DNA of 64,000 bases, taken from NCBI GenBank assembly GCA_965655095.1, contig OZ296656.1, forward strand, positions 44,640,001 through 44,704,000, in the 5' to 3' direction. Position 1 is the first letter of the stretch. The number at the start of each line of letters is the position of its first letter. This document shows positions 14,371 through 64,000 of the stretch, in pieces. The notes beneath the pieces were generated by a model. That model was given only the letters and a program-made list of their open reading frames with translations, was not told the DNA's origin and searched no databases. The translations under genes and the position numbers were made by a program. The DNA is from Haplodiscus bocki. Lineage: Eukaryota.

Positions 14371-14466
14371 TCAAACACTTCCTTTAAATTAAATTTGTCA
14401 TTATAAGCATGCCACGTGTTCTTCAACGTCACGCACTTTCGCTTTTGACAGATTCGACTTTCTTTT

Positions 14467-22330: not shown

Positions 22331-22378
22331 AAAAAATTCAGCATTTTTTTCAAAACTGGCACTCTCGTGCATTCCACC

Positions 22379-26200: not shown

Positions 26201-27816
26201 GTATCAAAAGTAGATATATTTTTAATTTGCGCTTTACATTACAACGCCAGACCTTTCAGTGCTCCAATTACTGATGGAACGAAGTGCTGAGGATCAGAAT
26301 TGTAGAGAAAAATTGGTTTTCTCACAAGGTTTCAAGAAATGGGTAATGAAATTGGCACATGTTTTCTGATCCACGTTGTTGTTTTCGTATCTTTGAGGGT
26401 CTCTGCCTGGACACAAATCGAGTCAAAATTGAAAAATGCTAAGCTCATGAAGAGTTTTTAATGTTTTGAGTACTTGATACCAAAAGAATTTAGCTTGTCA
26501 AAGAGAGTTTCTTGGATTTGATCTACGTTCCTCGTATAGATCTTTTTTACCAGCTCGCTGCATGTAGACAAACGTCGCTCCATGTTGTCTGCTCTGTTGA
26601 AGAATGCGTGACGGTTAGGACAACGAAAAGATCGGAAACAACAATATTGTTGCTGGCATAGAATTTAAACTTGTTGCATCTTAATAGTCGCATCGTGTTT
26701 TCACATTTTCGCACACTTCGTCTAGCAAAATTTCCGACAACTTTCTCATTAACGGTGGCTAAATCATCATGTACCTTTTTGAGTGTTAGCAGATCCTCAT
26801 CAGTTGGAATGTCGTTCATATGGACACCTGCAACTGGTTCTTGCAGAGCCCATCTATTCCTTTCATGAAAAGAGTGAAAGTTTAAGAAGTTTCTTCCTAA
26901 TTTTTATTTCCGTGCAAATGGGAAAAACAGGAACAAAAAGGCAGAGATTGTCTTTATATGGCTGACTTAAGTTCTCCTTAAACGTGAGACAATAGATTTT
27001 TTGATTTTTAGGCAAAAGTTTAGGCAAGGTGAAACAGCGTCCTTGCGACCCATAAGTACAAGTACAGTTGTGAGGAAAACAGCAAAAAAGTTGAAATTGC
27101 CAGTTTGTAGAATCTCCAATTTGTGCTCATCTTTCCTCTATTGAACAACTCCATGACATTAATTTGTTGAGAAAATCTTTTAGCTTTATCAAGTGATCCT
27201 TTGTGCATTTAAATTTCTATCAGTCCAGCAGGGTATTATTTTCGTGTGCATAAATTTATCTGAACTTTCCACCCACTGTATTCTTCAGAGTAAACCGAAA
27301 AGCCAATTCCTCTTATACCGCACAATTTATATTGTAGACAAAAAGATCAAGCTGCTCGTTCGCCACTGTTTCGTTTTTATTTTCTGTTTCGTAATTCAAA
27401 AACTGGTGTCTCGACGTTTCAAGCTCAGAATCCACCAAAAAAGAATTCACAGGAATGCAAGTCCTCTATAAGATTGGTACAGTCTACATCTTTCTTGATT
27501 TTGTCCGGATCAGCAGTTGCTGTCTTAATTGAAAAGCCATGATGAACGTTTCTCTGTTTTCTTAAAGCTCAAAAACCTGGAAAATCTGGATGACAAGGTT
27601 CGCACTTGAAATTAACAGCAAGTTTTCGAGTGTTGTACTGGTTAGCAATGTGATAATTCGAACCTTCCTGGGGAAAAGTGGAGAAAATGTGTCACAGGGT
27701 GCATTACCAGGTTCCAGCTGAGCATCTCTTCTTGTGCCATACAACATTGTTTTTGCAACTTGGGTACCACACTTTTCTCTTGAATTTTTTTTCTGGGATT
27801 GAGGAAAACTTCTCAT
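23270..27816 (-). pseudogene. polB: Protein-primed family B DNA polymerase with N-terminal C2H2 fingers, exonuclease, endonuclease-like insert and palm motifs
   Basis: Exo II-like FVLNSAKNDL. Motif B KLLAINSYGYQ. Motif C KIDTGSL (from DTDS). Insert DGFCSHCNNVFDAIRCFYHFCPC. C-terminus DDDGIHTDPLNL* at 23270. Many stops and frameshifts. Confidence 0.93.
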
Positions 27817-30800
27817 TGAGAGGTGTTCAACGGAATGATTTCGAATAAGTGTAAAGATAGCAGCAACTTGACTGTGGCAATGGAAGAGGAAATATGCCAA
27901 AAAAAGACATAGCAAGTGCTACTCAATACTTTCAATTTTATATGGAAAACCCCATTAGAAAAAGAGCAACCATAAAAACAAAGAAACATGACAGTAAAAA
28001 GAAAAACCGTACGAGTTGTCAATCAACTTCTTTCGTTTTAGAAACCGAATGTGTCCAAAAAAAAATCAATTAAAATGGTCAAAAATCTTATCTATGAAAA
28101 CACTTCAAGTGGAATAAGTTCTCTTTTTATAGTGACAGAATGTCTGAGAAAAAACACCCTGTGGATTAACTTCCCCAGGCAGCAACTTTGAGAAATTCGT
28201 CAACCATCAATCAAAAAGGTTTCCATGGAAGAAAGAAAAATACTTTGCATAGTCAATGTTGTGCGGATCTTAAAAACTTGAGAGCAACAACATGTATGGC
28301 AACATCCACCAGCAAAACATATCGTGGTACCAGGTTCGTAACTACTAGACAACAATTTCATTTTCAATTATCCAAAGCGAACTTTCAATACTTGTTTGGA
28401 TCAAATAAAATGACCGACGTCGCTGAATTTTGGAGTATTAACATAATCAGCACTGGTGTACACACCGACAAAATCAATTCACAAAAATGACTGTCTTAAA
28501 GCAGCTGATCTCTGCCAGAAAGCATTTTCCATATTTTTGCAAACTGTATTCAATTCAAGAAGAAAACCTGGAGGAAATTTTAGCCGAAAATGACGTAGAT
28601 AGTTTTGTATACCACAACTTTTTTCATTTCTCCAGGTCCCACATCGATCAAAAAACAAGTTAGCAAAGGCTCCAACGAAAAACGTTCTCCATTCATTCTG
28701 TTTCAATTTTGCGATTTGAAGCCACAGCTGCATTATAAGATGATCAAACTTCCAGTTCACTACTGTTTCGGTGAGATTTTCCACTTCTTAATTCCGAACT
28801 CTGTGTCTCGCCCTTTCAATTTCAAAAACCTTCAAAAAAATACGGAAACGAAACTCTTCATTAATATTCGTTTGATCCACTGCGCTGTTAAATTTTCCCG
28901 AATGAACATTTTCTGTCTGAATTAAAATGCCATGTTGAATGTTTTCCTGTTTTCGCAAAGCATAAAATCCTGGAAACTCTTGATAACATTGTTTACAAAT
29001 GAAAGTAACCGCAGCTTTTGGAGCGGTGTTATGTTAAGCAAAATGATGAACAAATCCTACTGCGATATAGTAGAGAAATTGAGGCTTTGTGTGTAACAAA
29101 TGTTTTAGCTGAGCATCTCTTTTTGTGCCGTACAACATTGTTTTTTTTATGTTGGATAACAATTTTTTCTCTTCAAATTTTTTTCTCGGATTGACGAAAG
29201 CTTCTCATTACGAGGTGTTCAACGGAAAGATTTCAAATAAACGTAAAAATTGATGCAACCTGAATGTGGCACTGGAAGACGAAAAATGCCAATAAAAGAC
29301 ATAGCAGGTGTTACTCAATACTTTCAATTTTTTATGGAAAACCCCATTAGAAAAAGAGCAACCACAAAAACAAGGAAACATGACAGTAAAAGGAAAAACC
29401 GTTCGAGTTGTCAATCAACTTCTTTCGTTTTAGAAACCGAATGTGTCCAAAAAAAATCAATTAAAGTGGTCAAAAAGCTTGTCTATGAAAACACTTCAAG
29501 TGGAATAACCCCTTTTTTTTGTAGTGACAGAATGTCTGAGAAAAAACATCCTGTGGATTAACTTCCCCAGGCAGCAACTTTGAGAATTTCGTCAACCATC
29601 AATCAAAAAGGTTTCCATGGAAGAAAGAAAAATACTTTGCATAGTCAATGTTGTGCGGATCTTAAAAACTTGAGAGCAACAACATGTATGGCAACATCCA
29701 CCAGCAAAACATATCGTGGTACCAGGTTCGTAACTACTAGACAACAATTTCATTTTCAATTATCCAAAACGAAATTTCAATACTTGTTTGGATCAAATAA
29801 AATGACTGACGTCGCTGAATTTTGGAGTATTAATATAATCAGCACTGGTGTACACACCGACAAAATCAATTCACAAAAATGACTGTCTTAAAGCAGCTGA
29901 TATCTGCCAGAAAGCATTTGCCACATTTTTGCAAACTGTATTCAATTCAAGAAGAAAACCTGGAGGAAATTTTAGCCGAAAATGACGTAGATAGTTATGT
30001 ATACCACAACTTTCTTCATTTCTCCAGGTCCCACATCGATCAAAAAACAAGTTAGCAAAGGCTCCAGCGAAAAACGTTCTGCGTTCATTCTGTTTCAATT
30101 TTGCGATTTGAAGGCACAGCTGCATTATAAGATGATCAAACTTCCAATTCACTACTGTTTCGGTGAGATTTTGCACTTCGTAATTCAAAACTCTGTGTCT
30201 CGCCCTTTCGATTTCAAAAACCTTCAAAAAAATACGGAAACGAAACTCTTCCTTATTATTCGTTTGATCCACTGCGCTGTTAAATTTTCCCGAATGAACA
30301 TTTTCTGTCTGAATTAAAATGCCATGTTGAATGTTTTCCTGTTTTCGCAAAGCATAAAATCCTGGAAACTCTTGATAACATTGTTTACAATTGAAAGTAA
30401 CCGCAGGTTTTGGAGCGGTGTTATGTTAAGCAAAAAGATGAACAAAACCTACTGCGATATAGTAGAGAAATTGAGGCTTTGTGTGTAACAAATGTTTTAG
30501 CTGAGCATCTCTTTTTGTGCCGTACAACATTGTTTTTTTTATGTTGGATAACAATTTCTTCTCTTCAAATTTTTTTCTCGGATTGACGAAAGCTTCTCAT
30601 TACGAGGTGTTCAACGGAAAGATTTCAAATAAACGTAAAAATTGATGCAACCTGACTGTGGCACTGGAAGACGAAAAATGCCAAAAAAGACATAGCAGGT
30701 GTTACTCAATACTTTCAATTTTATATGGAAAACCCCATTAGAAAAAGAGCAACCACAAAAACAAAGAAAAATGACAGTAAAAACAAAAACCGTACGAGTT

Positions 30801-33800
30801 GTCAATCAACTTCCTTCGTTTTAGAAACCGAATGTGTCCAAAAAAAATCAATTAAAGTGGTCAAAAAGCTTGTCTATGAAAACACTTCAAGAGGAATAAG
30901 TTCTTTTTTTGTAGTGACAGAATGTCTGAGAAAAAACATCCTGTGGATTAACTTCCCCAGGCAGCAACTTTGAGAATTTCGTCAACCATCAATCAAAAAG
31001 GTTTCCATGGAAGAAAGAAAAATACTTTGCATAGTCAATGTTGTGCGGATGTTAAAAACTTGAGAACAACAACATGTATGGCAACATCCACCAGCAAATA
31101 CATATCGTGGTACCAGGTTCGTAACTACTAGACAACAATTTCATTTTCAATTATCCAAAACGAAATTTCAATACTTGTTTGGATCAAATAAAAAGACTGG
31201 CGTCGCTGAATTTTGGAGTATTAATATAATCAGCACTGGTGTACACACCGACAAAATCAATTCACAAAAATGACTGTCTTAAAGCAGCTGATATCTGCCA
31301 GAAAGCATTTTCCACATTTTTGCAAACTGTATTCAATTCAAGAAGAAAACCTGGAGGAAATTTTAGCCGAAAATGACGTAGATAGTTATGTATACCACAA
31401 CTTTCTTCATTTCTCCAGGTCCCACATCGATCAAAAAACAAGTTAGCAAAGGCTCCAGCGAAAAACGTTCTGCGTTCATTCTGTTTCAATTTTGCGATTT
31501 GAAGGCACAGCTGCATTATAAGATGATCAAACTTCCAATTCACTACTGTTTCGGTGAGATTTTCCACTTCGTAATTCAAAACTCTGTGTCTCGCCCTTTC
31601 GATTTCAAAAACCTTCAAAAAAATACGGAAACGAAACTCTTCCTTATTATTCGTTTGATCCACTGCGCTGTTAAACTTTCCCGAATGAACATTTTCTGTC
31701 TGAATTAAAATGCCATGTTGAATGTTTTCCTGTTTTCGCAAAGCATAAAATCCTGGAAACTCTTGATAACATTGTTTACAATTGAAAGTAACCGCAGGTT
31801 TTGGAGCGGTGTTATGTTAAGCAAAAAGATGAACAAAACCTACTGCGATATAGTAGAGAAATTGAGGCTTTGTGTGTAACAAATGTTTTAGCTGAGCATC
31901 TCTTTTTGTGCCGTACAACATTGTTTTTTTTATGTTGGATAACAATTTTTTCTCTTCAAATTTTTTTCTCGGATTGACGAAAGCTTCTCATTACGAGGTG
32001 TTCAACGGAAAGATTTCAAATAAACGTAAAAATTGATGCAACCTGAATGTGGCACTGGAAGACGAAAAATGCCAAAAAAAGACATAGCAGGTGTTACTCA
32101 ATACTTTCAATTTTTTATGGAAAACCCCATTAGAAAAAGAGCAACCACAAAAACAAACAAACATGACAGTAAAAACAAAAACCGTACGAGTTGTCAATCA
32201 ACTTCTTTCGTTTTAGAAACCGAATGTGTCCAAAAAAAATCAATTAAAGTGGTCAAAAAGCTTGTCTATGAAAACACTTCAAGAGGAATAAGTTCTTTTT
32301 TTGTAGTGACAGAATGTCCGAGAAAAAACATCCTGTGGATTAACTTCCCCAGGCAGCAACTTTGAGAATTTCGTCAACCATCAATCAAAAAGGTTTCCAC
32401 GGAAGGAAGAAAAATACTTTGCATAGTCAGTGTTGTGCGGATGTTAAAAACTTGAGAACAACAACATGTATGGCAAAATCCACCAGCAAATACATATCGT
32501 GGTACCAGGTTCGTAACTACTAGACAACAATTTCATTTTCAATTATCCAAAACGAAATTTCAATACTTGTTTGGATCAAATAAAATGACTGACGTCGCTG
32601 AAGTTTGGAGTATTAATATAATCAGCACTGGTGTACACACCGACAAAATTCTTTCACAAAAATGACTGTCTTAAAGCAGCTGATATCTGCCAGAAAGCAT
32701 TTTCCACACTTTTGCAAACTGTATTCAATTCAAGAAGAAAACCTGGAGGAAATTTTAGCCAAAAATGACGTAGATAGTTATGTATACCACAACTTTTTTC
32801 ATTTCTCCAGGTCCCACATCGATCAAAAAACAAGTTAGCAAAGGCTCCGACGAAAAACGTTCTGCATTCATTCTGTTTCAATTTTGCGATTAGAAGCCAC
32901 AGCTGCATTATAAGATGATCAAACTTCCAATTCACTACTTTTTCGTTGAGATTTTCCACTTCGTAATTCAGAACTCTGTGTCTCGCCCTTTCAATTTCAA
33001 AAACCTTCAGAAAAAACGGAAACGAATTTCTTCCTTAAAATTCGTTTGATCCACTGCGCTGTTAAATTTTCCCGGATGAACATTTTCTGTCTGAATTAAA
33101 ATGCCATGTTGAACGTTTTCCTGTTTTCGCAAAGCAAAAAATCGTGGAATTTCTTGATAACATTGTTTACAAATGAAAGTAACCACAAGCTTTGGAGCGG
33201 TGTTATGTTAAGCAAAATGACGAACAAATCCTACTGCGATATAGTAGAGAAATTGAGGCTTTGTGTGTAACAAATGTTTTAGCTGAGCATCTCTTTTTGT
33301 GCCGTACAACATTGTTTTTTTAAGTTGGATAACAATTTTTTCTCTTGAATTTTTTTTCTCGGATTGACGAAAGCTTCTCATTAGGAGGTGTTCAACGGAA
33401 AGATTTCAAATAAACGTAAAAATTGATGCAACCTGACTGTAGCACTGGAAGACGAAAAATGCCAAAAAAGACACAGCAGGTGTTACTCAATACTTTCAAT
33501 TTTATATGGAAAACCCCATTAGAAAAAGAGCAACCATAAAAACAAAGAAACATGACAGTAAAAGAAAAAACCGTACGAGTTGTCAATCAACTTCTTTCGT
33601 TTTAGAAACCGAATGTGTCCAAAAAAAATTAATTAAAGTGGTCGAAAAGCTTGTCTATGAAAACACTTCAAGTGGAATAACTTCTTTTTTTGTAGTGACA
33701 GAATGTCTGAGAAAAAACATCCTGTGGATTAACTTCCCCAGGCAGCAACTTTGAGAATTTCGTCAACCATCTATCAAAAAGGTTTCCACGGAAGGAAGAA

Positions 33801-36800
33801 AAAAACTTTGCATAGTCAGTGTTGTGCGGATGTTAAAAACTTGAGAACAACAACATGTATGGCAAAATCCACCAGCAAATAGATATCGTGGTACCAGGTT
33901 CGTAACTACTAGACAACAATTTCATTTTCAATTATCCAAAACGAAATTTCAATACTTGTTTGGATCAAATAAAATGACTGACGTCGCTGAAGTTTGGAGT
34001 ATTAATATAATCAGCACTGGTGTACACACCGACAAAATTCTTTCACAAAAATGACTGTCTTAAAGCAGCTGATATCTGCCAGAAAGCATTTTCCACACTT
34101 TTGCAAACTGTATTCAATTCAAGAAGAAAACCTGGAGGAAATTTTAGCCAAAAATGACGTAGATAGTTATGTATACCACAACTTTTTTCATTTCTCCAGG
34201 TCCCACATCGATCAAAAAACAAGTTAGCAAAGGCTCCGACGAAAAACGTTCTGCATTCATTCTGTTTCAATTTTGCGATTAGAAGCCACAGCTGCATTAT
34301 AAGATGATCAAACTTCCAATTCACTACTTTTTCGTTGAGATTTTCCACTTCGTAATTCAGAACTCTGTGTCTCGCCCTTTCAATTTCAAAAACCTTCAGA
34401 AAAAACGGAAACGAATTTCTTCCTTAAAATTCGTTTGATCCACTGCGCTGTTAAATTTTCCCGGATGAACATTTTCTGTCTGAATAAAAATGCCATGTTG
34501 AACGTTTTCCTGTTTTCGCAAAGCATAAAATCGTGGAATTTCTTGATAACATTGTTTACAAATGAAAGTAACCACAAGCTTTGGAGCGGTGTTATGTTAA
34601 GCAAAATGACGAACAAATCCTACTGCGATATAGTAGAGAAATTGAGGCTTTGTGTGTAACAAATGTTTTAGCTGAGCATCTCTTTTTGTGCCGTACAACA
34701 TTGTTTTTTTAAGTTGGATAACAATTTTTTCTCTTGAATTTTTTTTCTCGGATTGACGAAAGCTTCTCATTAGGAGGTGTTCAACGGAAAGATTTCAAAT
34801 AAACGTAAAAATTGATGCAACCTGACTGTAGCACTGGAAGACGAAAAATGCCAAAAAAGACACAGCAGGTGTTACTCAATACTTTCAATTTTATATGGAA
34901 AACCCCATTAGAAAAAGAGCAACCATAAAAACAAAGAAACATGACAGTAAAAGAAAAAACCGTACGAGTTGTCAATCAACTTCTTTCGTTTTAGAAACCG
35001 AATGTGTCCAAAAAAAATTAATTAAAGTGGTCGAAAAGCTTGTCTATGAAAACACTTCAAGTGGAATAACTTCTTTTTTTGTAGTGACAGAATGTCTGAG
35101 AAAAAACATCCTGTGGATTAACTTCCCCAGGCAGCAACTTTGAGAATTTCGTCAACCATCTATCAAAAAGGTTTCCACGGAAGGAAGAAAAAAACTTTGC
35201 ATAGTCAGTGTTGTGCCGATGTTAAAAACTTGAGAACAACAACATGTATGGCAACATCCACCAGCAAATACATATCGTGGTACCAGGTTCGTAACTACTA
35301 GACAACGATTTCATTTTCAATCATCCAAAACGAAATTTCAATACTTGTTTGGATCAAATAAAATGACTGCCGTCGCTGAATTTTGGAGTATTAATATAAT
35401 CAGCACTGGTGTACACACCGACAAAATCAATTCACAAAAATGACTGTCTTAAAGCAGCTGATATCTGCCAGAAAGCATTTTCCACATTTTTCAAACTGTA
35501 TTCAATTCAAGAAGAAAACCTGGAGCAAATTATAGCCGAAAATGACGTAGGTAGTTGTGTATACCACAACTTTTTTCTTTTCTCCAGGTCCCACATCGAT
35601 CAAAATACAAGTTAGCAAAGGCTCCAACGAAAAACGTTCTGCATTCATTCTGTTTCAATTTTGCGATTTGAAGCCACAGCTGCAATATAAGATGATCAAT
35701 CTTCCAATTCACTACTGTTTCGGTGAGATTCTCCACTTCGTAATTCAAAACTCTGTGTCTCGCCCTTTCGATTTCAAAAACCTTCAAAAAAATACGGAAA
35801 CGAAACTCTTCCTTATTATTCGTTTGATCCACTGCGCTGTTAAACTTTCCCGAATGAACATTTTCTGTCTGAATTAAAATGCCATGTTGAATGTTTTCCT
35901 GTTTTCGCAAAGCATAAAATCCTGGAAACTCTTGATAACATTGTTTACAATTGAAAGTAACCGCAGGTTTTGGAGCGGTGTTATGTTAAGCAAAAAGATG
36001 AACAAAACCTACTGCGATATAGTAGAGAAATTGAGGCTTTGTGTGTAACAAATGTTTTAGCTGAGCATCTCTTTTTGTGCCGTACAACATTGTTTTTTTT
36101 ATGTTGGATAACAATTTTTTCTCTTCAAATTTTTTTCTCGGATTGACGAAAGCTTCTCATTACGAGGTGTTCAACGGAAAGATTTCAAATAAACGTAAAA
36201 ATTGATGCAACCTGAATGTGGCACTGGAAGACGAAAAATGCCAAAAAAAGACATAGCAGGTGTTACTCAATACTTTCAATTTTTTATGGAAAACCCCATT
36301 AGAAAAAGAGCAACCACAAAAACAAACAAACATGACAGTAAAAACAAAAACCGTACGAGTTGTCAATCAACTTCTTTCGTTTTAGAAACCGAATGTGTCC
36401 AAAAAAAATCAATTAAAGTGGTCGAAAAGCTTGTCTATGAAAACACTTCAAGTGGAATAACTTCTTTTTTTGTAGTGACAGAATGTCTGAGAAAAAACAT
36501 CCTGTGGATTAACTTCCCCAGGCAGCAACTTTGAGAATTTCGTCAACCATCAATCAAAAAGGTTTCCACGGAAGGAAGAAAAATACTTTGCATAGTCAGT
36601 GTTGTGCGGATGTTAAAAACTTGAGAACAACAACATGTATGGCAACATCCACCAGCAAATACATATCGTGGTACCAGGTTCGTAACTACTAGACAACGAT
36701 TTCATTTTCAATCATCCAAAACGAAATTTCAATACTTGTTTGGATCAAATAAAATGACTGCCGTCGCTGAATTTTGGAGTATTAATATAATCAGCACTGG

Positions 36801-42800: not shown

Positions 42801-45800
42801 CCCGGATGAACATTTTCTGTCTGAATTAAAATGCCATGTTGAACGTTTTCCTGTTTTCGCAAAGCATAAAATCGTGGAATTTCTTGATAACATTGTTTAC
42901 AAATGAAAGTAACCACAAGCTTTGGAGCGGTGTTATGTTAAGCAAAATGACGAACAAATCCTACTGCGATATAGTAGAGAAATTGAGGCTTTGTGTGTAA
43001 CAAATGTTTTAGCTGAGCATCTCTTTTTGTGCCGTACAACATTGTTTTTTTAAGTTGGATAACAATTTTTTCTCTTGAATTTTTTTTCTCGGATTGACGA
43101 AAGCTTCTCATTAGGAGGTGTTCAACGGAAAGATTTCAAATAAACGTAAAAATTGATGCAACCTGACTGTAGCACTGGAAGACGAAAAATGCCAAAAAAG
43201 ACACAGCAGGTGTTACTCAATACTTTCAATTTTATATGGAAAACCCCATTAGAAAAAGAGCAACCATAAAAACAAAGAAATATGACAGTAAAAGAAAAAA
43301 CCGTACGAGTTGTCAATCAACTTCTTTCGTTTTAGAAACCGAATGTGTCCAAAAAAAATTAATTAAAGTGGTCGAAAAGCTTGTCTATGAAAACACTTCA
43401 AGTGGAATAACTTCTTTTTTTGTAGTGACAGAATGTCTGAGAAAAAACATCCTGTGGATTAACTTCCCCAGGCAGCAACTTTGAGAATTTCGTCAACCAT
43501 CTATCAAAAAGGTTTCCACGGAAGGAAGAAAAAAACTTTGCATAGTCAGTGTTGTGCCGATGTTAAAAACTTGAGAACAACAACATGTATGGCAACATCC
43601 ACCAGCAAATACATATCGTGGTACCAGGTTCGTAACTACTAGACAACGATTTCATTTTCAATCATCCAAAACGAAATTTCAATACTTGTTTGGATCAAAT
43701 AAAATGACTGCCGTCGCTGAATTTTGGAGTATTAATATAATCAGCACTGGTGTACACACCGACAAAATCAATTCACAAAAATGACTGTCTTAAAGCAGCT
43801 GATATCTGCCAGAAAGCATTTTCCACATTTTTGCAAACTGTATTCAATTCAAGAAGAAAACCTGGAGCAAATTTTAGCCGAAAATGACGTAGGTAGTTGT
43901 GTATACCACAACTTTTTTCTTTTCTCCAGGTCCCACATCGATCAAAATACAAGTTAGCAAAGGCTCCAACGAAAAACGTTCTGCATTCATTCTGTTTCAA
44001 TTTTGCGATTTGAAGCCACAGCTGCAATATAAGATGATCAATCTTCCAATTCACTACTTTTTCGGTGAGATTCTCCACTTCGTAATTCAAAACTCTGTGT
44101 CTCCCCCTCTCAATTTCAAAAACCTTCAAAAAAATACGAAAACGAAACTCTTCTTTATTATTCGTTTGATCCACTGCGCTCTCAAATTTTCCCGGATGAA
44201 CATTTTCTTTCTGAATAAAATGCCATGTTGAATGTTTTCCTGTTTTCGCAAAGCATAAAATCCTGGAAACTCTTGATAACATTGTTTACAATTGAAAGTA
44301 ACCGCAGGTTTTGGAGCGGTGTTATGTTAAGCAAAAAGATGAACAAAACCTACTGCGATATAGTAGAGAAATTGAGGCTTTGTGTGTAACAAATGTTTTA
44401 GCTGAGCATCTCTTTTTGTGCCGTACAACATTGTTTTTTTCGGTTGGATAACAATTTTTTCTCTTGAATTTTTTTTCTCGGATTGACGAAAGCTTCTCAT
44501 TAGGAGGTGTTCAACGGAAAGATTTCAAATAAACGTAAAAATTGATGCAACCTGAATGTGGCACTGGAAGACGAAAAATGCCAAAAAAAGACATAGCAGG
44601 TGTTACTCAATACTTTCAATTTTTTATGGAAAACCCCATTAGAAAAAGAGCAACCACAAAAACAAAGAAAAATGACAGTAAAAACAAAAACCGTACGAGT
44701 TGTCAATCAACTTCCTTCGTTTTAGAAACCGAATGTGTCCAAAAAAAATTAATTAAAGTGGTCAAAAAGCTTGTCTATGAAAACACTTCAAGTGGAATAA
44801 CCCCTTTTTTTTGTAGTGACAGAATGTCTGAGAAAAAACATCCTGTGGATTAACTTCCCCAGGCAGCAACTTTGAGAATTTCGTCAACCATCAATCAAAA
44901 AGGTTTCCACGGAAGAAAGAAAAATACTTTGCATAGTCAATGTTGTGCGGATCTTAAAAACTTGAGAGCAACAACATGTATGGCAACATCCACCAGCAAA
45001 ACATATCGTGGTACCAGGTTCGTAACTACTAGACAACAATTTCATTTTCAATTATCCAAAACGAAATTTCAATACTTGTTTGGATCAAATAAAATGACTG
45101 ACGTCGCTGAATTTTGGAGTATTAATATAATCAGCACTGGTGTACACACCGACAAAATCAATTCACAAAAATGACTGTCTTAAAGCAGCTGATATCTGCC
45201 AGAAAGCATTTTCCACTTTTTTGCAAACTGTATTCAATTCAAGAAGAAAACCTGGAGGAAATTTTAGCCGAAAAAGACGTAGATAGTTTTGTATACCACA
45301 ACTTTTTTCATTTCTCCAGGTCCCACATCGATCAAAAAACAAGTTAGCAAAGGCTCCAACGAAAAACGTTCTCCATTCATTCTGTTTCAATTTTGCGATT
45401 TGAAGCCACAGCTGCATTATAAGATGATCAAACTTCCAATTCACTACTGTTTCGTTGAGATTTTCCACTTCGTAATTCACAACTCTGTGTCTCGCCCTTT
45501 CAATTTCAAAAACCTTCAAAAGAAACGGAAACGATCTTCTTCCTTAAAATTCGTTTGATCCACTGCGCTGTTAAATTTTCCCGGATGAACATTTTCTGTC
45601 TGAATTAAAATGCCAAGTTGAACGTTTTCCTGTTTTCGCAAAGCATAAATTCGTGGAATTTCTTGATAACATTGTTTACAAATGAAAGTAACCGCAGGCT
45701 TTGGAGCGTTGTTATGTTAAGCAAAAAGATGAACAAATCCTACTGCGATATAGTAGAGAAATTGAGGCTTTGTGTGTAACAAATTTTTTAGCTGAGCATC

Positions 45801-48800
45801 TCTTTTTGTGCCGTACAACATTGTTTTTTTTAAGTTGGTTAACAATTTTTTCTCTTGAATTTTTTTTCTCGGATTGACGAAAGCTTCTCATTAGGAGGTG
45901 TTCAACGGAAAGATTTCAAATAAACGTAAAAATTGATGCAACCTGACTGTGGCACTGGAAGACGAAAAATGCCAAAAAAGACATAGCAGGTGTTACTCAA
46001 TACTTTCAATTTTATATGGAAAACCCCATTAGAAAAAGAGCAACCATAAAAACAAAGAAACATGACAGTCAAAGGAAAAACCGTTCGAGTTGTCAATCAA
46101 CTTCTTTCGTTTTAGAAACCGAATGTGTCCAAAAAAAATTAATTAAAGTGGTCAAAAAGCTTGTCTATGAAAACACTTCAAGTGGAATAACCCCTTTTTT
46201 TTGTAGTGACAGAATGTCTGAGAAAAAACATCCTGTGGATTAACTTCCCCAGGCAGCAACTTTGAGAATTTCGTCAACCATCAATCAAAAAGGTTTCCAT
46301 GGAAGAAAGAAAAATACTTTGCATAGTCAATGTTGTGCGGATCTTAAAAACTTGAGAGCAACAACATGTATGGCAACATCCACCAGCAAAACATATCGTG
46401 GTACCAGGTTCGTAACTACTAGACAACAATTTCATTTTCAATTATCCAAAACGAAATTTCAATACTTGTTTGGATCAAATAAAATGACTGACGTCGCTGA
46501 ATTTTGGAGTATTAATATAATCAGCACTGGTGTACACACCGACAAAATCAATTCACAAAAATGACTGTCTTAAAGCAGCTGATATCTGCCAGAAAGCATT
46601 TTCCACTTTTTTGCAAACTGTATTCAATTCAAGAAGAAAACCTGGAGGAAATTTTAGCCGAAAATGACGTAGATAGTTATGTATACCACAACTTTCTTCA
46701 TTTCTCCAGGTCCCACATCGATCAAAAAACAAGTTAGCAAAGGCTCCAGCGAAAAACGTTCTGCGTTCATTCTGTTTCAATTTTGCGATTTGAAGGCACA
46801 GCTGCATTATAAGATGATCAAACTTCCAATTCACTACTGTTTCGGTGAGATTTTCCACTTCGTAATTCAAAACTCTGTGTCTCGCCCTTTCAATTTCAAA
46901 AACCTTCAAAAAAATACGGAAACGAAACTCTTCCTTATTATTCGTTTGATCCACTGCGCTGTTAAATTTTCCCGAATGAACATTTTCTGTCTGAATTAAA
47001 ATGCCCTGTTGAATGTTTTCCTGTTTTCGCAAAGCATAAAATCCTGGAAACTCTTGATAACATTGTTTACAATTGAAAGTAACCGCAGGTTTTGGAGCGG
47101 TGTTATGTTAAGCAAAAAGATGAACAAAACCTACTGCGATATAGTAGAGAAATTGAGGCTTTGTGTGTAACAAATGTTTTAGCTGAGCATCTCTTTTTGT
47201 GCCGTACAACATTGTTTTTTTTATGTTGGATAACAATTTTTTCTCTTCAAATTTTTTTCTCGGATTGACGAAAGCTTCTCATTACGAGGTGTTCAACGGA
47301 AAGATTTCAAATAAACGTAAAAATTGATGCAACCTGAATGTGGCACTGGAAGACGAAAAATGCCAAAAAAAGACATAGCAGGTGTTACTCAATACTTTCA
47401 ATTTTTTATGGAAAACCCCATTAGAAAAAGAGCAACCACAAAAACAAACAAACATGGCAGTAAAAACAAAAACCGTACGAGTTGTCAATCAACTTCTTTC
47501 GTTTTAGAAACCGAATGTGTCCAAAAAAAATCAATTAAAGTGGTCAAAAAGCTTGTCTATGAAAACACTTCAAGAGGAATAAGTTCTTTTTTTTGTAGTG
47601 ACAGAATGTCTGAGAAAAAACATCCTGTCGATTAACTTCCCCAGGCAGCAACTTTGAGAATTTCGTCAACCATCAATCAAAAAGGTTTCCACGGAAGGAA
47701 GAAAAATACTTTGCATAGTCAGTGTTGTGCGGATGTTAAAAACTTGAGAACAACAACATGTATGGCAACATCCACCAGCAAATACATATCGTGGTACCAG
47801 GTTCGTAACTACTAGACAACAATTTCATTTTCAATTATCCAAAACGAAATTTCAATACTTGTTTGGATCAAATAAAATGACTGCCGTCGCTGAATTTTGG
47901 AGTATTAATATAATCAGCACTGGTGTACACACCGACAAAATCAATTCACAAAAATGACTGTCTTAAAGCAGCTGATATCTGCCAAAAAGCATTTTCCACA
48001 TTTTTGCAAACTGTATTCAATTCAAGAAGAAAACCTGGAGGAAATTTTAGCCAAAAATGACGTAGATAGTTATGTATACCACAACTTTCTTCATTTCTCC
48101 AGGTCCCACATCGATCAAAAAACAAGTTAGCAAAGGCTCCAACAAAAAACGTTCTGCGTTCATTCTGTTTCAATTTTGCGATTTGAAGCCACAGCTGCAT
48201 TATAGGATGATCAAACTTTCAATTCACTACTGTTTCGGTGAGATTTTCCACTTCGTAATTCAAAACTCTGTGTCTCGCCCTTTCAATTTCAAAAACCTTC
48301 AAAAAAAACGGAAACGAATTTCTTCCTTAAAATTCGTTTGATCCACTGCGCTGTTAAATTTTCCCGGATGAACATTTTCTGTCTGAATTAAAATGCCATG
48401 TTGAACGTTTTCCTGTTTTCGCAAAGCATAAAATCGTGGAATTTCTTGATAACATTGTTTACAAATGAAAGTAACCACAAGCTTTGGAGCGGTGTTATGT
48501 TAAGCAAAATGACGAACAAATCCTACTGCGATATAGTAGAGAAATTGAGGCTTTGTGTGTAACAAATGTTTTAGCTGAGCATCTCTTTTTGTGCCGTACA
48601 ACATTGTTTTTTTAAGTTGGATAACAATTTTTTCTCTTGAATTTTTTTTCTCGGATTGACGAAAGCTTCTCATTAGGAGGTGTTCAACGGAAAGATTTCA
48701 AATAAACGTAAAAATTGATGCAACCTGACTGTAGCACTGGAAGACGAAAAATGCCAAAAAAGACACAGCAGGTGTTACTCAATACTTTCAATTTTATATG

Positions 48801-51800
48801 GAAAACCCCATTAGAAAAAGAGCAACCATAAAAACAAAGAAATATGACAGTAAAAGAAAAAACCGTACGAGTTGTCAATCAACTTCTTTCGTTTTAGAAA
48901 CCGAATGTGTCCAAAAAAAATTAATTAAAGTGGTCGAAAAGCTTGTCTATGAAAACACTTCAAGTGGAATAACTTCTTTTTTTGTAGTGACAGAATGTCT
49001 GAGAAAAAACATCCTGTGGATTAACTTCCCCAGGCAGCAACTTTGAGAATTTCGTCAACCATCTATCAAAAAGGTTTCCACGGAAGGAAGAAAAAAACTT
49101 TGCATAGTCAGTGTTGTGCCGATGTTAAAAACTTGAGAACAACAACATGTATGGCAACATCCACCAGCAAATACATATCGTGGTACCAGGTTCGTAACTA
49201 CTAGACAACGATTTCATTTTCAATCATCCAAAACGAAATTTCAATACTTGTTTGGATCAAATAAAATGACTGCCGTCGCTGAATTTTGGAGTATTAATAT
49301 AATCAGCACTGGTGTACACACCGACAAAATCAATTCACAAAAATGACTGTCTTAAAGCAGCTGATATCTGCCAGAAAGCATTTTCCACATTTTTGCAAAC
49401 TGTATTCAATTCAAGAAGAAAACCTGGAGCAAATTTTAGCCGAAAATGACGTAGGTAGTTGTGTATACCACAACTTTTTTCTTTTCTCCAGGTCCCGCAT
49501 CGATCAAAATACAAGTTAGCAAAGGCTCCAACGAAAAACGTTCTGCATTCATTCTGTTTCAATTTTGCGATTTGAAGCCACAGCTGCAATATAAGATGAT
49601 CAATCTTCCAATTCACTACTGTTTCGGTGAGATTCTCCACTTCGTAATTCAAAACTCTGTGTCTCCCCCTCTCAATTTCAAAAACCTTCAAAAAAATACG
49701 AAAACGAAACTCTTCTTTATTATTCGTTTGATCCACTGCGCTCTCAAATTTTCCCGGATGAACATTTTCTTTCTGAATAAAATGCCATGTTGAATGTTTT
49801 CCTGTTTTCGCAAAGCATAAAATCCTGGAAACTCTTGATAACATTGTTTACAATTGAAAGTAACCGCAGGTTTTGGAGCGGTGTTATGTTAAGCAAAAAG
49901 ATGAACAAAACCTACTGCGATATAGTAGAGAAATTGAGGCTTTGTGTGTAACAAATGTTTTAGCTGAGCATCTCTTTTTGTGCCGTACAACATTGTTTTT
50001 TTCGGTTGGATAACAATTTTTTCTCTTGAATTTTTTTTGTCGGATTGACGAAAGCTTCTCATTAAGATGTGTTCAACGGAAAGATTTCAAATAAACGTAA
50101 AAATTGATGCAACCTGAATGTGGCACTGGAAGACGAAAAATGCCAAAAAAAGACATAGCAGGTGTTACTCAATACTTTCAATTTTTTATGGAAAACCCCA
50201 TTAGAAAAAGAGCAACCACAAAAACAAAGAAAAATGACAGTAAAAACAAAAACCGTACGAGTTGTCAATCAACTTCCTTCGTTTTAGAAACCGAATGTGT
50301 CCAAAAAAAATCAATTAAAGTGGTCAAAAAGCTTGTCTATGAAAACACTTCAAGAGGAATAAGTTCTTTTTTTGTGGTGACAGAATGTCCGAGAAAAAAC
50401 ATCCTGTGGATTAACTTCCCCAGGCAGCAACTTTGAGAATTTCGTCAACCATCAATCAAAAAGGTTTCCACGGAAGGAAGAAAAATACTTTGCATAGTCA
50501 GTGTTGTGCGGATGTTAAAAACTTGAGAACAACAACATGTATGGCAACATCCACCAGCAAATACATATCGTGGTACCAGGTTCGTAACTACTAGACAACA
50601 ATTTCATTTTCAATTATCCAAAACGAAATTTCAATACTTGTTTGGATCAAATAAAAAGACTGACGTCGCTGAATTTTGGAGTATTAATATAATCAGCACT
50701 GGTGTACACACCGACAAAATCAATTCACAAAAATGACTGTCTTAAAGCAGCTGATATCTGCCAGAAAGCATTTTCCACACTTTTGCAAACTGTATTCAAT
50801 TCAAGAAGAAAACCTGGAGGAAATTTTAGCCAAAAATGACGTAGATAGTTATGTATACCACAACTTTTTTCATTTCTCCAGGTCCCACATCGATCAAAAA
50901 ACAAGTTAGCAAAGGCTCCGACGAAAAACGTTCTGCATTCATTCTGTTTCAATTTTGCAATTAGAAGCCACAGCTGCATTATAAGATGATCAAACTTCCA
51001 ATTCACTACTGTTTCGTTGAGATTTTCCACTTCGTAATTCACAACTCTGTGTCTCGCCCTTTCAATTTCAAAAACCTTCAAAAGAAACGGAAACGATCTT
51101 CTTCCTTAAAATTCGTTTGATCCACTGCGCTGTTAAATTTTCCCGGATGAACATTTTCTGTCTGAATTAAAATGCCAAGTTGAACGTTTTCCTGTTTTCG
51201 CAAAGCATAAATTCGTGGAATTTCTTGATAACATTGTTTACAAATGAAAGTAACCGCAGGCTTTGGAGCGTTGTTATGTTAAGCAAAAAGATGAACAAAT
51301 CCTACTGCGATATAGTAGAGAAATTGAGGCTTTGTGTGTAACAAATTTTTTAGCTGAGCATCTCTTTTTGTGCCGTACAACATTGTTTTTTTTAAGTTGG
51401 TTAACAATTTTTTCTCTTGAATTTTTTTTCTCGGATTGACGAAAGCTTCTCATTAGGAGGTGTTCAACGGAAAGATTTCAAATAAACGTAAAAATTGATG
51501 CAACCTGACTGTGGCACTGGAAGACGAAAAATGCCAAAAAAGACATAGCAGGTGTTACTCAATACTTTCAATTTTATATGGAAAACCCCATTAGAAAAAG
51601 AGCAACCATAAAAACAAAGAAACATGACAGTCAAAGGAAAAACCGTTCGAGTTGTCAATCAACTTCTTTCGTTTTAGAAACCGAATGTGTCCAAAAAAAA
51701 TTAATTAAAGTGGTCAAAAAGCTTGTCTATGAAAACACTTCAAGTGGAATAACCCCTTTTTTTTGTAGTGACAGAATGTCTGAGAAAAAACATCCTGTGG

Positions 51801-54800
51801 ATTAACTTCCCCAGGCAGCAATTTTGAGAATTTCGTCAACCATCAATCAAAAAGGTTTCCATGGAAGAAAGAAAAATACTTTGCATAGTCAATGTTGTGC
51901 GGATCTTAAAAACTTGAGAGCAACAACATGTATGGCAACATCCACCAGCAAAACATATCGTGGTACCAGGTTCGTAACTACTAGACAACAATTTCATTTT
52001 CAATTATCCAAAACGAATTTTCAATACTTGTTTGGATCAAATAAAATGACTGACGTCGCTGAATTTTGGAGTATTAATATAATCAGCACTGGTGTACACA
52101 CCGACAAAATCAATTCACAAAAATGACTGTCTTAAAGCAGCTGATATCTGCCAGAAAGCATTTTCCACTTTTTTGCAAACTGTATTCAATTCAAGAAGAA
52201 AACCTGGAGGAAATTTTAGCCGAAAATGACGTAGATAGTTATGTATACCACAACTTTCTTCATTTCTCCAGGTCCCACATCGATCAAAAAACAAGTTAGC
52301 AAAGGCTCCAGCGAAAAACGTTCTGCGTTCATTCTGTTTCAATTTTGCGATTTGAAGGCACAGCTGCATTATAAGATGATCAAACTTCCAATTCACTACT
52401 GTTTCGGTGAGATTTTCCACTTCGTAATTCAAAACTCTGTGTCTCGCCCTTTCAATTTCAAAAACCTTCAAAAAAATACGGAAACGAAACTCTTCCTTAT
52501 TATTCGTTTGATCCACTGCGCTGTTAAATTTTCCCGAATGAACATTTTCTGTCTGAATTAAAATGCCCTGTTGAATGTTTTCCTGTTTTCGCAAAGCATA
52601 AAATCCTGGAAACTCTTGATAACATTGTTTACAATTGAAAGTAACCGCAGGTTTTGGAGCGGTGTTATGTTAAGCAAAAAGATGAACAAAACCTACTGCG
52701 ATATAGTAGAGAAATTGAGGCTTTGTGTGTAACAAATGTTTTAGCTGAGCATCTCTTTTTGTGCCGTACAACATTGTTTTTTTTATGTTGGATAACAATT
52801 TTTTCTCTTCAAATTTTTTTCTCGGATTGACGAAAGCTTCTCATTACGAGGTGTTCAACGGAAAGATTTCAAATAAACGTAAAAATTGATGCAACCTGAA
52901 TGTGGCACTGGAAGACGAAAAATGCCAAAAAAAGACATAGCAGGTGTTACTCAATACTTTCAATTTTTTATGGAAAACCCCATTAGAAAAAGAGCAACCA
53001 CAAAAACAAACAAACATGGCAGTAAAAACAAAAACCGTACGAGTTGTCAATCAACTTCTTTCGTTTTAGAAACCGAATGTGTCCAAAAAAAATCAATTGA
53101 AGTGGTCAAAAAGCTTGTCTATGAAAACACTTCAAGAGGAATAAGTTCTTTTTTTTTGTAGTGACAGAATGTCTGAGAAAAAACATCCTGTCGATTAACT
53201 TCCCCAGGCAGCAACTTTGAGAATTTCGTCAACCATCAATCAAAAAGGTTTCCACGGAAGGAAGAAAAATACTTTGCATAGTCAGTGTTGTGCGGATGTT
53301 AAAAACTTGAGAACAACAACATGTATGGCAACATCCACCAGCAAATACATATCGTGGTACCAGGTTCGTAACTACTAGACAACAATTTCATTTTCAATTA
53401 TCCAAAACGAAATTTCAATACTTGTTTGGATCAAATAAAATGACTGCCGTCGCTGAATTTTGGAGTATTAATATAATCAGCAATGGTGTACACACCGACA
53501 AAATCAGTTCACAAAAATGACTGTCTTAAAGCAGCTGATATCTGCCAAAAAGCATTTTCCACATTTTTGCAAACTGTATTCAATTCAAGAAGAAAACCTG
53601 GAGGAAATTTTAGCCAAAAATGACGTAGATAGTTATGTATACCACAACTTTCTTCATTTCTCCAGGTCCCACATCGATCAAAAAACAAGTTAGCAAAGGC
53701 TCCAACAAAAAACGTTCTGCGTTCATTCTGTTTCAATTTTGCGATTTGAAGCCACAGCTGCATTATTTCATGATCAAACTTTCAATTCACTACTGTTTCG
53801 GTGAGATTTTCCACTTCGTAATTCAAAACTCTGTGTCTCGCCCTTTCAATTTCAAAAACCTTCAAAAAAATACGGAAACGAAACTCTTCCTTTTTATTCG
53901 TTTGATCCACTGCGCTGTTAAATTTTCCCGAATGAACATTTTCTGTCTGAATTAAAATGCCATGTTGAATGTTTTCCTGTTTTCGCAAAGCATAAAATCC
54001 TGGAATCTCTTGATAACATTGTTTACAATTGAAAGTAACCGCAGGTTTTAGGGCGGTGTTATGTTAAGCAAAATGATGAACAAATCTTACTGCGATATAG
54101 TATAGAAATTGAGGCTTTGTGTGTAACAAATGTTTTAGCTGAGCATCTCTTTTTGTGCCGTACAACATTGTTTTTTTAGGTTGGATAACAATTTTTTCTC
54201 TTGAATTTTTTTCTCGGATTGACGAAAGCTTCTCATTAAGAGGTGTTCAACGGAAAGATTTCAAATAAACGTAAAAAATGATGCAACCTGACTGTGGCAC
54301 TGGAAGACGAAAAATGCCAAAAAAAGACATAGCAGGTGTTACTCAATACTTTCAATTTTATATGGAAAACCCCATTAAAAAAAGAGCAACTATAGGAAAA
54401 GGAACATGGCACTAAAAACACAAACCGTACGAGTTGTCAATCAATTTCTTTCATTTTAGAAACCGACTGTGTCCAAAAAATTCATTTGAAGGTGTCGGAA
54501 AGCTTGTATGAAAACAATTCAAGCGGAATAAGTTCCCTTTTTATGGTGACAGACTGTCTGAGAAAAACAATGTAAGGGATTACCAACCACAGGCAACGTG
54601 ACTGAAACTTTTCATCAACAAGAAGAAATACCCGCGACGAACGCTTGTGTGAGGAGATTGTTTGGTTTATTTTTGCAAATTTATTCTCAACTGTTAATCA
54701 AAAAGATGTACATTAAGGGAAAAAGAATTTTTTTGCACAGCCACTGTTGTGCTGAAATTTAAAACGTTGCAACGACAACATGCACAACAGCATCCACCAG

Positions 54801-55226
54801 CAAACACACCTTCTGGAGCCAAGCTCCTGAGCACAAGACCAAAATTTTGTTTTTAAATAGCCGAAACAAAATATTTAAATCTGTTTGGTTCATATAAAAG
54901 CGTTGGCGTCGCTGAATTTTGAGATCTTTAATTAATCAGCATCGGTGTACACCAGCGATAAAATCATTTCACATACTTTACTGTGTGAGGACAGCTCATC
55001 TCTTTCAAAAAGAAACTTCTCAGTTTGCGCAAACACTATTCATTTTACGAAGACAATCCAGAGGAACTTTTGAACGCAATTGACGTGGATAGTATTTTTT
55101 GTCACAACTTTTTTCACATCTGTCAGTCCCAGTATCGAATTGAGCAAGTTACCAATGGCTCTAGAGAAAAATCTCCTGCAATCAGTTGGTTCCATTTCAC
55201 AGATTCGAAGACACAGCAACATTATA
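27340..55226. repeat. Polinton-derived macrosatellite: 20 tandem copies of a ~1390-bp unit
   Basis: Landmark agctgagcatctc at 27716, 29107, 30499, 31890, 33281, 34670, 36059, 37450, 38839, 40230, 41620, 43011, 44400, 45790, 47181, 48573, 49962, 51352, 52743 and 54137 (spacing 1389-1394). Internal copies are near-identical; the outer edges are much more divergent. Confidence 0.98.
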
Positions 55227-55600
55227 CCCTACAAGAAGATATGAGAATTCCTAAAAGAAACTTGAGTTTTTTGATCGGCAGTTTGCACGACTTTCTCAAA
55301 TTTTTTGATGAAGCGAGAAATTGATCACAAATTCCATTATCAAAATCGAAAAATGACAATGGGTTTACAAAGTCAAAAGTCAACCCTTCTGCTCATTGCT
55401 ATAAAGAAACCATTGAGCATCCAGACACGTATTCGTTTGTCGTTCCGGTTTGAAAAAGACATTCCTTGCGTCTTCTCCATTAAAAAGATTGAAGAATAAG
55501 GTAATCAATATACACTTTTGGAAAATGTCAATTTTGACCACCGCGAGGTTTACAACTTCTACAAAAACCATATTTACTATTCAAATAGTTGTCTAACAAT
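54985..55600 (+). pseudogene. Polinton accessory ORF divergent from polB; its 5' part is included in every satellite unit
   Basis: LRKHYSFYEDNPEELLNAIDVDSIFCHNFFH... aligns with MTVLKQ...LYSIQEENLEEILAENDVDSFVYHNFFH from 28487 in the unit. Confidence 0.55.
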
Positions 55601-61850: not shown

Positions 61851-61990
61851 GCAATTTTACACGGCAAGATACAACTATTCTTTCTCAACCGAACAACTTG
61901 GAAGTTAAAAATAGAGGTTCCAGGATTGAAAGAAGGGTTAAAATTTAATATGAATAATTACTCCTCCTCTCAATAACCGTTTGTGTTGGC

Positions 61991-63799: not shown

Positions 63800-64000
63800 A
63801 CAAGTTGGTCGGTTAAGACAAAAAGTGGTTCATTTTCATACAGGTTTTGGTCGACAGCTTCAAGGTGTTCCGGTGCAATAGCACAAGGGATTGGGAGAAC
63901 CGCAATTCAAATTTTGCAAAAAAGTTTCATCTTTGCTCTAAAACCTGTCGGTCCGGAGATATTGGAATTTGCCGCACCAGAACTTGCAGAGGTTGTTGAT
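63800..64000 (+). pseudogene. Small core / membrane-lytic-type virion protein (partial)
   Basis: TGFGRQLQG.../GAIAQGIGRTAIQILQKSFIFALKPVGPEILEFAAPELAEVV: a QxGxG-like site followed by amphipathic helices, downstream of the penton. Confidence 0.55.

Follow-up and report, generated by a model that had tools for sequence, protein, structure and literature searches.

The question raised by this locus of Haplodiscus bocki is how, and when, an internal piece of a mobile element came to be repeated 20 times within that element. Coordinates refer to the window, i.e., the whole stretch of 64,000 nucleotides that was analysed.

Organization of the array

A sequence-only reading of the window had described 20 tandem copies of a ~1.39-kb piece, and both the period and the number of copies were recovered:

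27341..55227, + strand: whole array (20 periods, 19 junctions)
28738..53767, + strand: 18 homogenised inner units, u02-u19 (mosaic, with dimer and tetramer blocks)

All periods run head to tail and measure 1388-1397 bp, except for the last (1460 bp). At each of the 19 junctions, the 5' part of a plus-strand gene abuts the 5' part of pPolB. The unit had been ascribed to coding DNA; comparison with intact relatives revealed that this applies to ~730 of its ~1390 bp, namely the 5' ends of pPolB and of the opposite-strand gene, but not to the remainder, which is the intergenic stretch separating these two divergent genes. With a kilobase-scale head-to-tail unit homologous to a mobile element, the array is another TE-derived tandem array (satellite or macrosatellite), and thus of a known kind. 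A search for the junction elsewhere in the genome, which had been proposed as a check, scored only the best candidates (n = 40). The junction-spanning query matched at full length at 19 of these places, every one inside the window, and with one side only at the other 21; among the scored places, the array is thus restricted to one locus. Internal tandem duplications also occur in two other Polintons of the same genome.

That the array is an assembly artefact is refuted as far as its existence is concerned, and the probability left to this explanation is close to nil. All 18 inner units are distinct in sequence. In the read-depth check, likewise proposed beforehand, array contigs reached 10-19x the depth of the flank in four of four public runs from two samples (12.9-18.9 in one, 10.0-14.1 in the other), and one contig bridged the junction, reaching 46 bases beyond it on one side and 97 on the other. 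The raw-data support covers the left edge and the junction. In favor of an artefact, the ratios lie mostly at 10-14 instead of the 19 assembled, although contig depth is too crude to be equated with copy number, and the runs stem from a single study, whose samples may comprise the assembled one.

The parent element

The parent element spans 44,678 bp with the array and ~18.2 kb without the 19 extra periods. Three relatives each span ~18 kb, and both values fall within the 13-25 kb of Polintons. Alignments with single-copy relatives extend from the left flank through the first unit and from the last unit through the right flank; the unit is therefore internal and the parent colinear on both sides, as the sequence-only reading had it. 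The following parts were recognized:

22373..22378, no strand: left target-site duplication (6 bp, 5/6 matching the hexamer after the right terminus)
22379..22962, + strand: left terminal inverted repeat, beginning AGTAGTAG
23426..27818, - strand: pPolB pseudogene (stops and frameshifts throughout; start placed against intact relatives)
24974..25252, + strand: old insertion in pPolB (copies of 23850-23999 and 24293-24413, 21% and 24% diverged)
54980..55600, + strand: decayed plus-strand gene (limits approximate; ~208 aa in relatives)
61137..61885, + strand: decayed packaging-ATPase-like gene (weak Pox_A32 match of a relative, E 0.13, below cut-off)
62341..63098, + strand: decayed retroviral-like integrase gene (relative L026: Pfam rve, 35.2 bits, cut-off 32.6)
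63094..63783, + strand: candidate minor capsid gene, decayed (N-terminal motif and position)
63863..64000, + strand: start of decayed major capsid gene, which runs past the window end

The right terminal inverted repeat lies outside the window (G000:C9:44706464-44707056, window-equivalent 66464-67056). The two repeats (584 and 593 bp; 78 of 553 aligned bases differ) and the target duplication are of Polinton size (100-1500 bp and 5-8 bp, respectively). Pfam scans of 39 window frames returned no Polinton match and only a Pao peptidase, in a neighbouring retrotransposon; gene labels were therefore taken from better-preserved relatives. A relative's 691-aa pPolB frame, which aligns to 23426-25821, contains on reading what we take to be the family-B motifs A, B, and C; its match to a VSR-like insert is weak (E 0.06), and Pfam scans returned no match to DNA_pol_B_2. 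The major capsid protein had an Atlas feature score of 0.97 to clusters named major capsid protein or DJR-like, PF21738 being found on 16-52% of the cluster members, which places it with double jelly-roll (DJR) major capsid proteins; sequence searches of PDB and Pfam with this frame retrieved nothing, and a PDB search with one accessory frame gave no match. The gene at 63094..63783, presumably a minor capsid gene judging from its N-terminal motif and position, had no family match in the Pfam scan. An adenovirus-like maturation protease was absent from the Pfam scans and the seven frames read, a scope that ends before the region behind the capsid gene. The plus-strand gene has 1644 homologues, of which the 120 listed are all without name or domain; it matched no Pfam or PHROG family, had no usable Atlas match, and its predicted fold had a mean pLDDT of 38.5. 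A PC4-like DNA-binding protein would be a guess that no search supports. Taken by its sequence features, the parent is a decayed Polinton.

Homogenised inner units and stratified end units

The 18 inner units differ by 3.15% on average (0.07-4.9%, 153 pairs), compared with ~30% from 50 other copies, i.e., they evolve in concert. Dimer blocks span u06-u12, and a partial tetramer duplication leads from u12-u15 to u16-u19; units two or four periods apart differ by as few as 1-6 bases. Among inner units, 1005 of 3916 site pairs failed the four-gamete test, and at least 15 exchanges were inferred. Their mosaic structure with dimer and tetramer blocks rules out a single rolling-circle burst.

The difference of a few percent stated for internal units thus holds, but the outer parts of the first and last unit are 31-33% from them. 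Each end unit is divided into three strata that mirror each other:

27341..27716, + strand: left old stratum (32.7% from inner units; adjoins the remainder of pPolB without a break; read depth in public runs is that of single-copy sequence)
27717..27919, + strand: left middle stratum (15.6% from inner units)
27920..27957, + strand: 38-bp stretch of the first unit (identical in first and last unit)
54340..54377, + strand: the same 38-bp stretch in the last unit
54378..54567, + strand: right middle stratum (15.1% from inner units)
54568..55227, + strand: right old stratum (31.5% from inner units; continues into the remainder of the plus-strand gene)

The young strata are 4.1% from the inner units at both edges, and their boundaries meet within the one 38-bp stretch. 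Two change-points were superior to one by 9 and 14 log-likelihood units; the strata boundaries rest on segments of 190-200 bp (SE 2.5 points).

In the old strata, the Jukes-Cantor (JC) distance between edge and inner copies is 0.41-0.43. Edge-to-inner differences are flat over codon positions 1/2/3, both in the pPolB part (0.26-0.29/0.29-0.31/0.32-0.34) and in the plus-strand gene (0.28-0.32/0.28-0.34/0.33-0.34), which indicates neutral drift of the two from one viral lineage. By comparison, pPolB of either the edge or the inner copy differs from an intact relative by ~0.3/0.26/0.45. Against the relative used, the plus-strand gene shows no excess at third positions (0.24-0.26), and the codon test therefore rests mainly on pPolB. 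In a tree, edge and inner copies clustered together against 47 other copies (support 99/97), on a segment picked from the change-point fit and with a bootstrap that had not settled; as they form the two longest branches, long-branch attraction may contribute to their grouping. Their shared stem is at most ~0.06, and the branches after the split are 0.23-0.27. Edge units, inner units, and flanks are equally decayed, with 17-21% of family-conserved sites altered. Hypermutation centred on the array is ruled out, as the element has decayed evenly over its length and relatives lie at the same distance from edge copies as from inner ones.

Given the short stem and the long branches, the founding duplication is best read as having occurred soon after the element died, early in its decay. 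Expansion of the array would then be recent and its birth old, the founding duplication being ~10x older (JC 0.41-0.43 versus 0.04). The sequence-only reading was right that homogenisation and expansion followed decay, inner units being ≤4.9% apart and each ~17-21% off at family-conserved sites; a recent birth of the satellite in an already dead element, as it was worded there, is not supported.

A probable stepwise history of the array

We favor a three-step growth of the array within a Polinton that was already integrated and decaying, with a probability of roughly 0.7; the array itself is assumed to be functionless, as seems likely. Early in the decay of the element, a head-to-tail duplication of a 1.39-kb internal segment would have given rise to two copies, which then drifted to ~32% apart. 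Much later, ~420 bp (unit offsets 377-800) would have become identical between both copies, either by gene conversion or by a cycle of expansion and collapse; this tract is now ~15% apart. An unequal crossover at mid-tract, within 38 perfectly matching bp, may then have produced a chimeric third copy, with its front from copy 2 and its back from copy 1. From the strata boundaries, we infer that this seeding crossover fell within 27920..27957 / 54340..54377. Further rounds of unequal exchange between periods that had become identical would have brought their number to 20, the dimer and tetramer blocks being the latest products. Expressed as distance, duplication would date to ~0.42, re-homogenisation to ~0.17, and expansion to ~0.04 and younger. 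Such a history predicts equal left and right values for each stratum, and these were found (32.7/31.5% old, 15.6/15.1% middle, 4.1/4.1% young).

A large array might instead have persisted since the founding duplication under continuous turnover, with only its outermost bases escaping homogenisation. A homogeneous centre with divergent ends is the standard outcome of unequal exchange, as described for Rsp (PMC5411766), and the stepwise edges are compatible with repeated events. However, whole units of intermediate age are missing, the boundaries of the young strata converge on the same 38 bp, and the middle strata extend only ~420 bp beyond one period; the latter two features indicate that the array passed through two-copy states, and we consider long persistence unlikely. 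An inner unit derived from a different Polinton copy, which supplied a circle or acted as conversion donor and recombined in by homology, would account for an edge-to-inner distance of ~30%, close to the distance to other family members and larger than the terminal-repeat divergence. The flat codon profile, the grouping of inner with edge copies in the tree, and the 21-22 of ~46 third-position states that both share in the pPolB part make such an origin highly improbable; no closer donor was present among the 50 copies compared or the scored matches, a weak argument as one search missed the window itself. We give equally little credence, if not less, to retention of the array for a function, be it as a chromatin or centromere seed or through junction read-through into overlapping sense and antisense RNA that feeds small RNAs against the family. 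Each unit does contain the region between two divergent genes, and the family is abundant (1308-3432 first-look candidates per query). Yet the unit is ~30% from all 50 other copies compared, a divergence too great for efficient small-RNA pairing, and the intergenic region has decayed like the remainder.

Terminal repeats apparently younger than the interior

The main difficulty for the three-step history inside an integrated element is posed by the terminal repeats. They would be expected to be at least as old as an in situ duplication, but are 14-15% apart compared with 32% at the array edges; their divergence of 14.1% ± 1.5 (second estimate, 15.2%) is about half of what the interior implies. 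The assertion that the array arose in situ therefore applies to the expansion, given that the divergence of the terminal repeats predates it, while the founding duplication may or may not have taken place at this site. The same three steps could have included, as the second, another transposition: proteins of an active relative would have copied the dead element with its two-copy duplication to the present site, resetting terminal repeats and the 420-bp stretch together, and only the expansion would be local. We regard this as a possible but distinctly less probable course of events.

Several observations speak for it. Terminal-repeat divergence (14.1-15.2%) equals that of the middle strata (14.2-15.6%) within error. 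Over 14 other elements, a calibration that leaves out L005 (no terminal-repeat pair found), interior decay tracks terminal-repeat age (r = 0.76); it predicts 0.137 for the interior, and the observed 0.264 is 4.2 residual SD off. The same calibration rules out a generally slower mutation of terminal repeats. Decay is uniform across all eight reading frames tested (second-position distance 0.21-0.26) rather than array-centred, AGTAGTAG and 19 identical bases are kept at both termini, and the distances of its terminal repeats to young ones (0.18 and 0.21) are nearer to the 0.17 expected from the age of the pair than to the 0.26 expected from that of the interior. On the other hand, neither a parent nor a sibling copy was found, the best of 39 other scored pPolB-flank matches being 74%. 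A similar pattern results if one terminal repeat converts the other in place; in element E1, one end is present in a 3.5-kb inverted copy, and deviations in the same direction, though weaker, are seen in L006 and E1. Of the 14 calibration pairs, some consist of short local alignments and are perhaps not true mates. A terminal-repeat tree of 32 rows (4 of 35 loci dropped, matches short) lacked resolution and never paired the two ends, and a chance agreement of the two ages is not unlikely. Hence, the proposal that a Polinton decayed by more than one-tenth of its bases was re-integrated by an active relative, and that this reset created the homology for a 28-kb macrosatellite, is put forward tentatively.

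Relation to known repeat arrays

Satellite DNAs from internal TE parts, including central parts of DNA transposons, are reviewed in PMC12628747 and PMC9659126, where unequal crossover or non-allelic recombination is given as the route. As in the present array, part of a mobile element has been turned into head-to-tail repeats; here, however, the unit has 1.39 kb, a single locus is involved, and both parental flanks and the founder copies are still present. The terms "polinton" and "maverick" are absent from the main text of these reviews, and the available text of PMC12129174 mentions Mavericks only as a repeat class. No satellite from a Polinton interior was found in the literature searched, mostly at the level of titles and abstract beginnings, which is not proof of absence. 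In Drosophila, tandem TE dimers expand into arrays, e.g., of hobo (~16 copies) and R1 (PMC5932611), with a two-copy substrate, unequal exchange as the likely engine, and a copy number similar to ours. Those dimers arise mainly by double insertion of elements with ends and target duplications, whereas the present duplication joins internal to internal sequence without ends, and its dimer lay dormant until ~30% diverged before expanding. The Rsp array of Drosophila shares a homogeneous centre, divergent ends, and higher-order blocks (PMC5411766); here, only parts of the two terminal units are divergent, and their three sharp strata, arranged as mirror images, narrow the position of the seeding crossover to 38 bp. 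The parent resembles pPolB2-type Polintons with a VSR insert (PMC10748475) in its pPolB, integrase, capsid, and putative ATPase genes, ~590-bp terminal inverted repeats, 6-bp target duplication, and length of ~18 kb without the extra units, but this copy is dead, measures 44.7 kb owing to the array, and has a weak VSR match (E 0.06).

The step from dimer to satellite can usually only be inferred, since the founder copies are lost by overwriting. In the present array, the outer halves of the two end units preserve both founders, which allows the order and relative timing of events to be read. The locus suggests that a short homogenised tract can render a duplication capable of recombination again after its copies have diverged too far, and the age mismatch between terminal repeats and interior calls for caution in dating endogenous Polintons. 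If a second transposition did occur, dead Polinton copies would still be moved as cargo, dating by terminal repeats would make them look too young, and kilobase satellites would repeatedly arise from the interiors of Polintons in this genome.

The array and its parent Polinton

Array-free relatives of the parent element were numerous in the H. bocki genome (66 to 74% identity) and aligned to the window at 23.4 to 28.2 kb and then at 54.9 to 64 kb, confirming that the parent continues colinearly on both sides of the array.

22379 to past the window's end (equivalent to 67056): Polinton, inverted repeats of 584 and 593 bp

The termini were AGTAGTAG, with a 6-bp target duplication (5/6 matching), and the element measured ∼18 kb once 19 extra periods were subtracted. 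In better-preserved relatives, the polymerase belonged to family B and carried a weak VSR-like insert, the rve integrase exceeded the Pfam cut-off, and Atlas features indicated a capsid of the double jelly-roll type (score 0.97); the match to an A32-like ATPase was weak, and no protease was identified among the frames read. The element fits the Polinton definition in the passages of PMC10748475 on that definition and on the VSR insert. Termini, inverted repeats, polymerase, integrase, and capsid thus bear out the earlier identification of the parent.

Alignment of the window with itself revealed a single extended array (period, ∼1390 bp), in which 19 full periods and a split twentieth aligned to a central unit. 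Cut at the unit-to-unit junction, the units spanned 27341 to 55227 (each 1388 to 1397 bp, the last 1460 bp), in agreement with the 20 tandem copies of a ∼1.39-kb Polinton piece previously proposed. All 18 inner units (u02 to u19) were distinct, with a mean pairwise difference of 3.15% (range, 0.07 to 4.9%; 153 pairs). The few-percent difference claimed by the sequence-only reading therefore held for these units, but not for the end units (u01 and u20), whose outer parts were ∼32% off. A 241-bp junction-crossing query matched at full length in 19 of its 40 best-scored places in the genome, all within the window; the remaining 21 matched to one side of the junction only.

Comparison of the window frames with intact relatives showed that each unit contains a 5′ piece of pPolB (∼480 bp of the minus-strand DNA polymerase gene; zinc-finger region, with weak C2H2 matches), an intergenic region (∼670 bp), and a 5′ piece of a plus-strand gene with no assigned function (∼250 bp). 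Both gene pieces were broken, with 2 to 3 stops and 1 to 5 frameshift gaps in 400 bp of the pPolB part.

Raw data came from four public runs (X1 to X4; two samples of a single study, possibly including the assembled one). The flank, together with the divergent beginning of u01, formed one single-copy record per run (1 to 5 differences in 1.1 to 1.25 kb), with depths of 41.9, 11.5, 36.7, and 39.1. Array contigs had depths of 539 and 791 (X1), 138 to 162 (X2), 376 to 463 (X3), and 390 to 549 (X4), i.e., 10 to 19 times the flank record. Since contig depth does not equal copy number, these data support ten or more copies rather than exactly 20. This support covers the left edge, the array body, and the junction, which was crossed by one X2 record that extended 46 and 97 bases to its two sides.

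End units are chimeras

Overlooked in the first reading, the end units are chimeras of three mirror-image strata. Bases private relative to the inner units made up 29% of offsets 1 to 376, 13% of 377 to 580, and 1.6% of the remainder in the first unit, and 1.5% of offsets 1 to 610, 11% of 611 to 800, and 29.5% of the remainder in the last. Models with two change-points gained 9 and 14 log-likelihood units over those with a single one. Mean pairwise differences from the inner units were 32.7, 15.6, and 4.1% on the left and 4.1, 15.1, and 31.5% on the right (SE, 0.7 to 2.6 points). The left middle stratum's last private base and the right middle stratum's first one flanked a 38-bp stretch that was identical in both end units (27920 to 27957 and 54340 to 54377).

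These divergence patterns suggest a founding state of two copies that drifted ∼32% apart, after which a 420-bp tract would have been re-made identical between them and a single crossover would have occurred within it. Inner units would then carry the front of copy 2 and the back of copy 1, with both founders surviving as end units; this model predicts exactly the observed mirror pattern. Later growth probably proceeded by iterative exchange, for which meiotic exchange, sister exchange, and replication slippage would look alike. Among inner units, 1005 of 3916 site pairs were incompatible, requiring at least 15 exchanges; alternate units in u06 to u12 differed by only 1 to 10 bases, u14 and u18 by 2, and u15 and u19 by 4.

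An intergenic segment just upstream of pPolB (27825 to 28034), overlapping the putatively re-homogenised tract, was homologous (68 to 72%) to a segment in or beside the terminal repeats in certain relatives (L017:7367-7558, L018:4429-4634, and L024:3993-4134).

Old origin, recent expansion

In the pPolB part, edge-versus-inner divergence was about flat over codon positions 1, 2, and 3 (0.26 to 0.29, 0.29 to 0.31, and 0.32 to 0.34), whereas third positions were raised (0.44 to 0.46) when either was compared with the intact relative L004. Departures from family-conserved first and second positions were equal (17 to 21%) in edge units, inner units, and both flanks, and exceeded those in all 50 other Polinton copies (1 to 15%). 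The array is most likely neutral. Only 7 to 9 of about 44 departures in the pPolB part were common to edge and inner copies, which grouped in a tree (support, 99/97; short stem, branch lengths 0.23 and 0.27), indicating duplication early in one copy's decay; the tree had 51 rows (47 of 50 loci covering the segment), its bootstrap had not settled, and long-branch attraction is possible. The array is real and Polinton-derived, and of the recent timing proposed earlier, the expansion stood (inner units <5% apart) but not the origin, which is old (outer strata of the end units ∼32% off).

The terminal repeats differed at 78 of 553 bases (14.1%; 88 of 579 in a second alignment), half the edge divergence and matching the age of the middle strata. 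In 14 other elements, interior decay tracked terminal-repeat age (r = 0.76; one further element gave no pair); the array-bearing Polinton lay 4.2 residual SD above this line, with decay uniform across eight frames. Two readings fit: in-place conversion of its terminal repeats, or renewed movement of the dead element. Their distances to young repeats (0.18 and 0.21) fell between those expected from pair age (0.17) and interior age (0.26), nearer the former. Against renewed movement, no parent copy was present in the best 39 other scored matches. Under either reading, the expansion (<5%) is younger than the terminal repeats and took place at the present site, which upholds the claimed in situ amplification for this step.

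Other rearranged Polintons and neighbouring repeats

A Polinton at G000:C3:41785147-41791412 carried three tandem copies of a 2087-bp pPolB piece (98.4% identical), which is a young internal array. Another (G000:C3:109556300-109563400) contained two tandem copies of ∼3.7 kb, spanning the pPolB 5′ and intergenic region also present in the window unit. Divergence between these copies was patchy, falling from 22% at the edges to 0% across ∼450 bp, which points to a recent conversion tract comparable to that proposed for the window array. Both elements came from best-scoring matches, placing recurrence at at least two other elements.

At G000:C6:73799515-73818500, a Polinton inverted repeat was lengthened to ∼3.5 kb (97.7% identity) and included the 3′ part of pPolB; a rearranged Polinton on contig C12 (L013:1-2728) had an internal 785-bp inverted repeat (98%). 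The array-bearing Polinton showed a second early rearrangement, an old pPolB insertion (24974 to 25252) from copies of 23850 to 23999 and 24293 to 24413 (21% and 24% diverged), missing in relatives. A dispersed repeat (∼65 to 73% identity) flanked the Polinton externally on both sides in inverted orientation (window 18513 to 19911; L019:5055-6602 and 8546-9692). Also in the window were:

6124 to 6211: minisatellite, 31-bp unit, 2 to 3 copies
6352 to 14831: BEL/Pao-type LTR retrotransposon (Peptidase_A17 match, 12008 to 12829; direct repeats 6352 to 6721 and 14479 to 14831, 9.9% different)
16674 to 16988: minisatellite, 22-bp unit, 14 copies

Discussion

Like satellites described in passages of PMC12628747 and PMC9659126, the array derives from the interior of a mobile element; neither main text names Polintons, and no title on a satellite from a Polinton interior was found in the literature searched. 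Its probable start from two copies resembles the dimers that expand into arrays in the part of PMC5932611 consulted, and its diverged end units the divergent array ends in that of PMC5411766. Save for the age mismatch between terminal repeats and interior, the history of this array is unusually readable.
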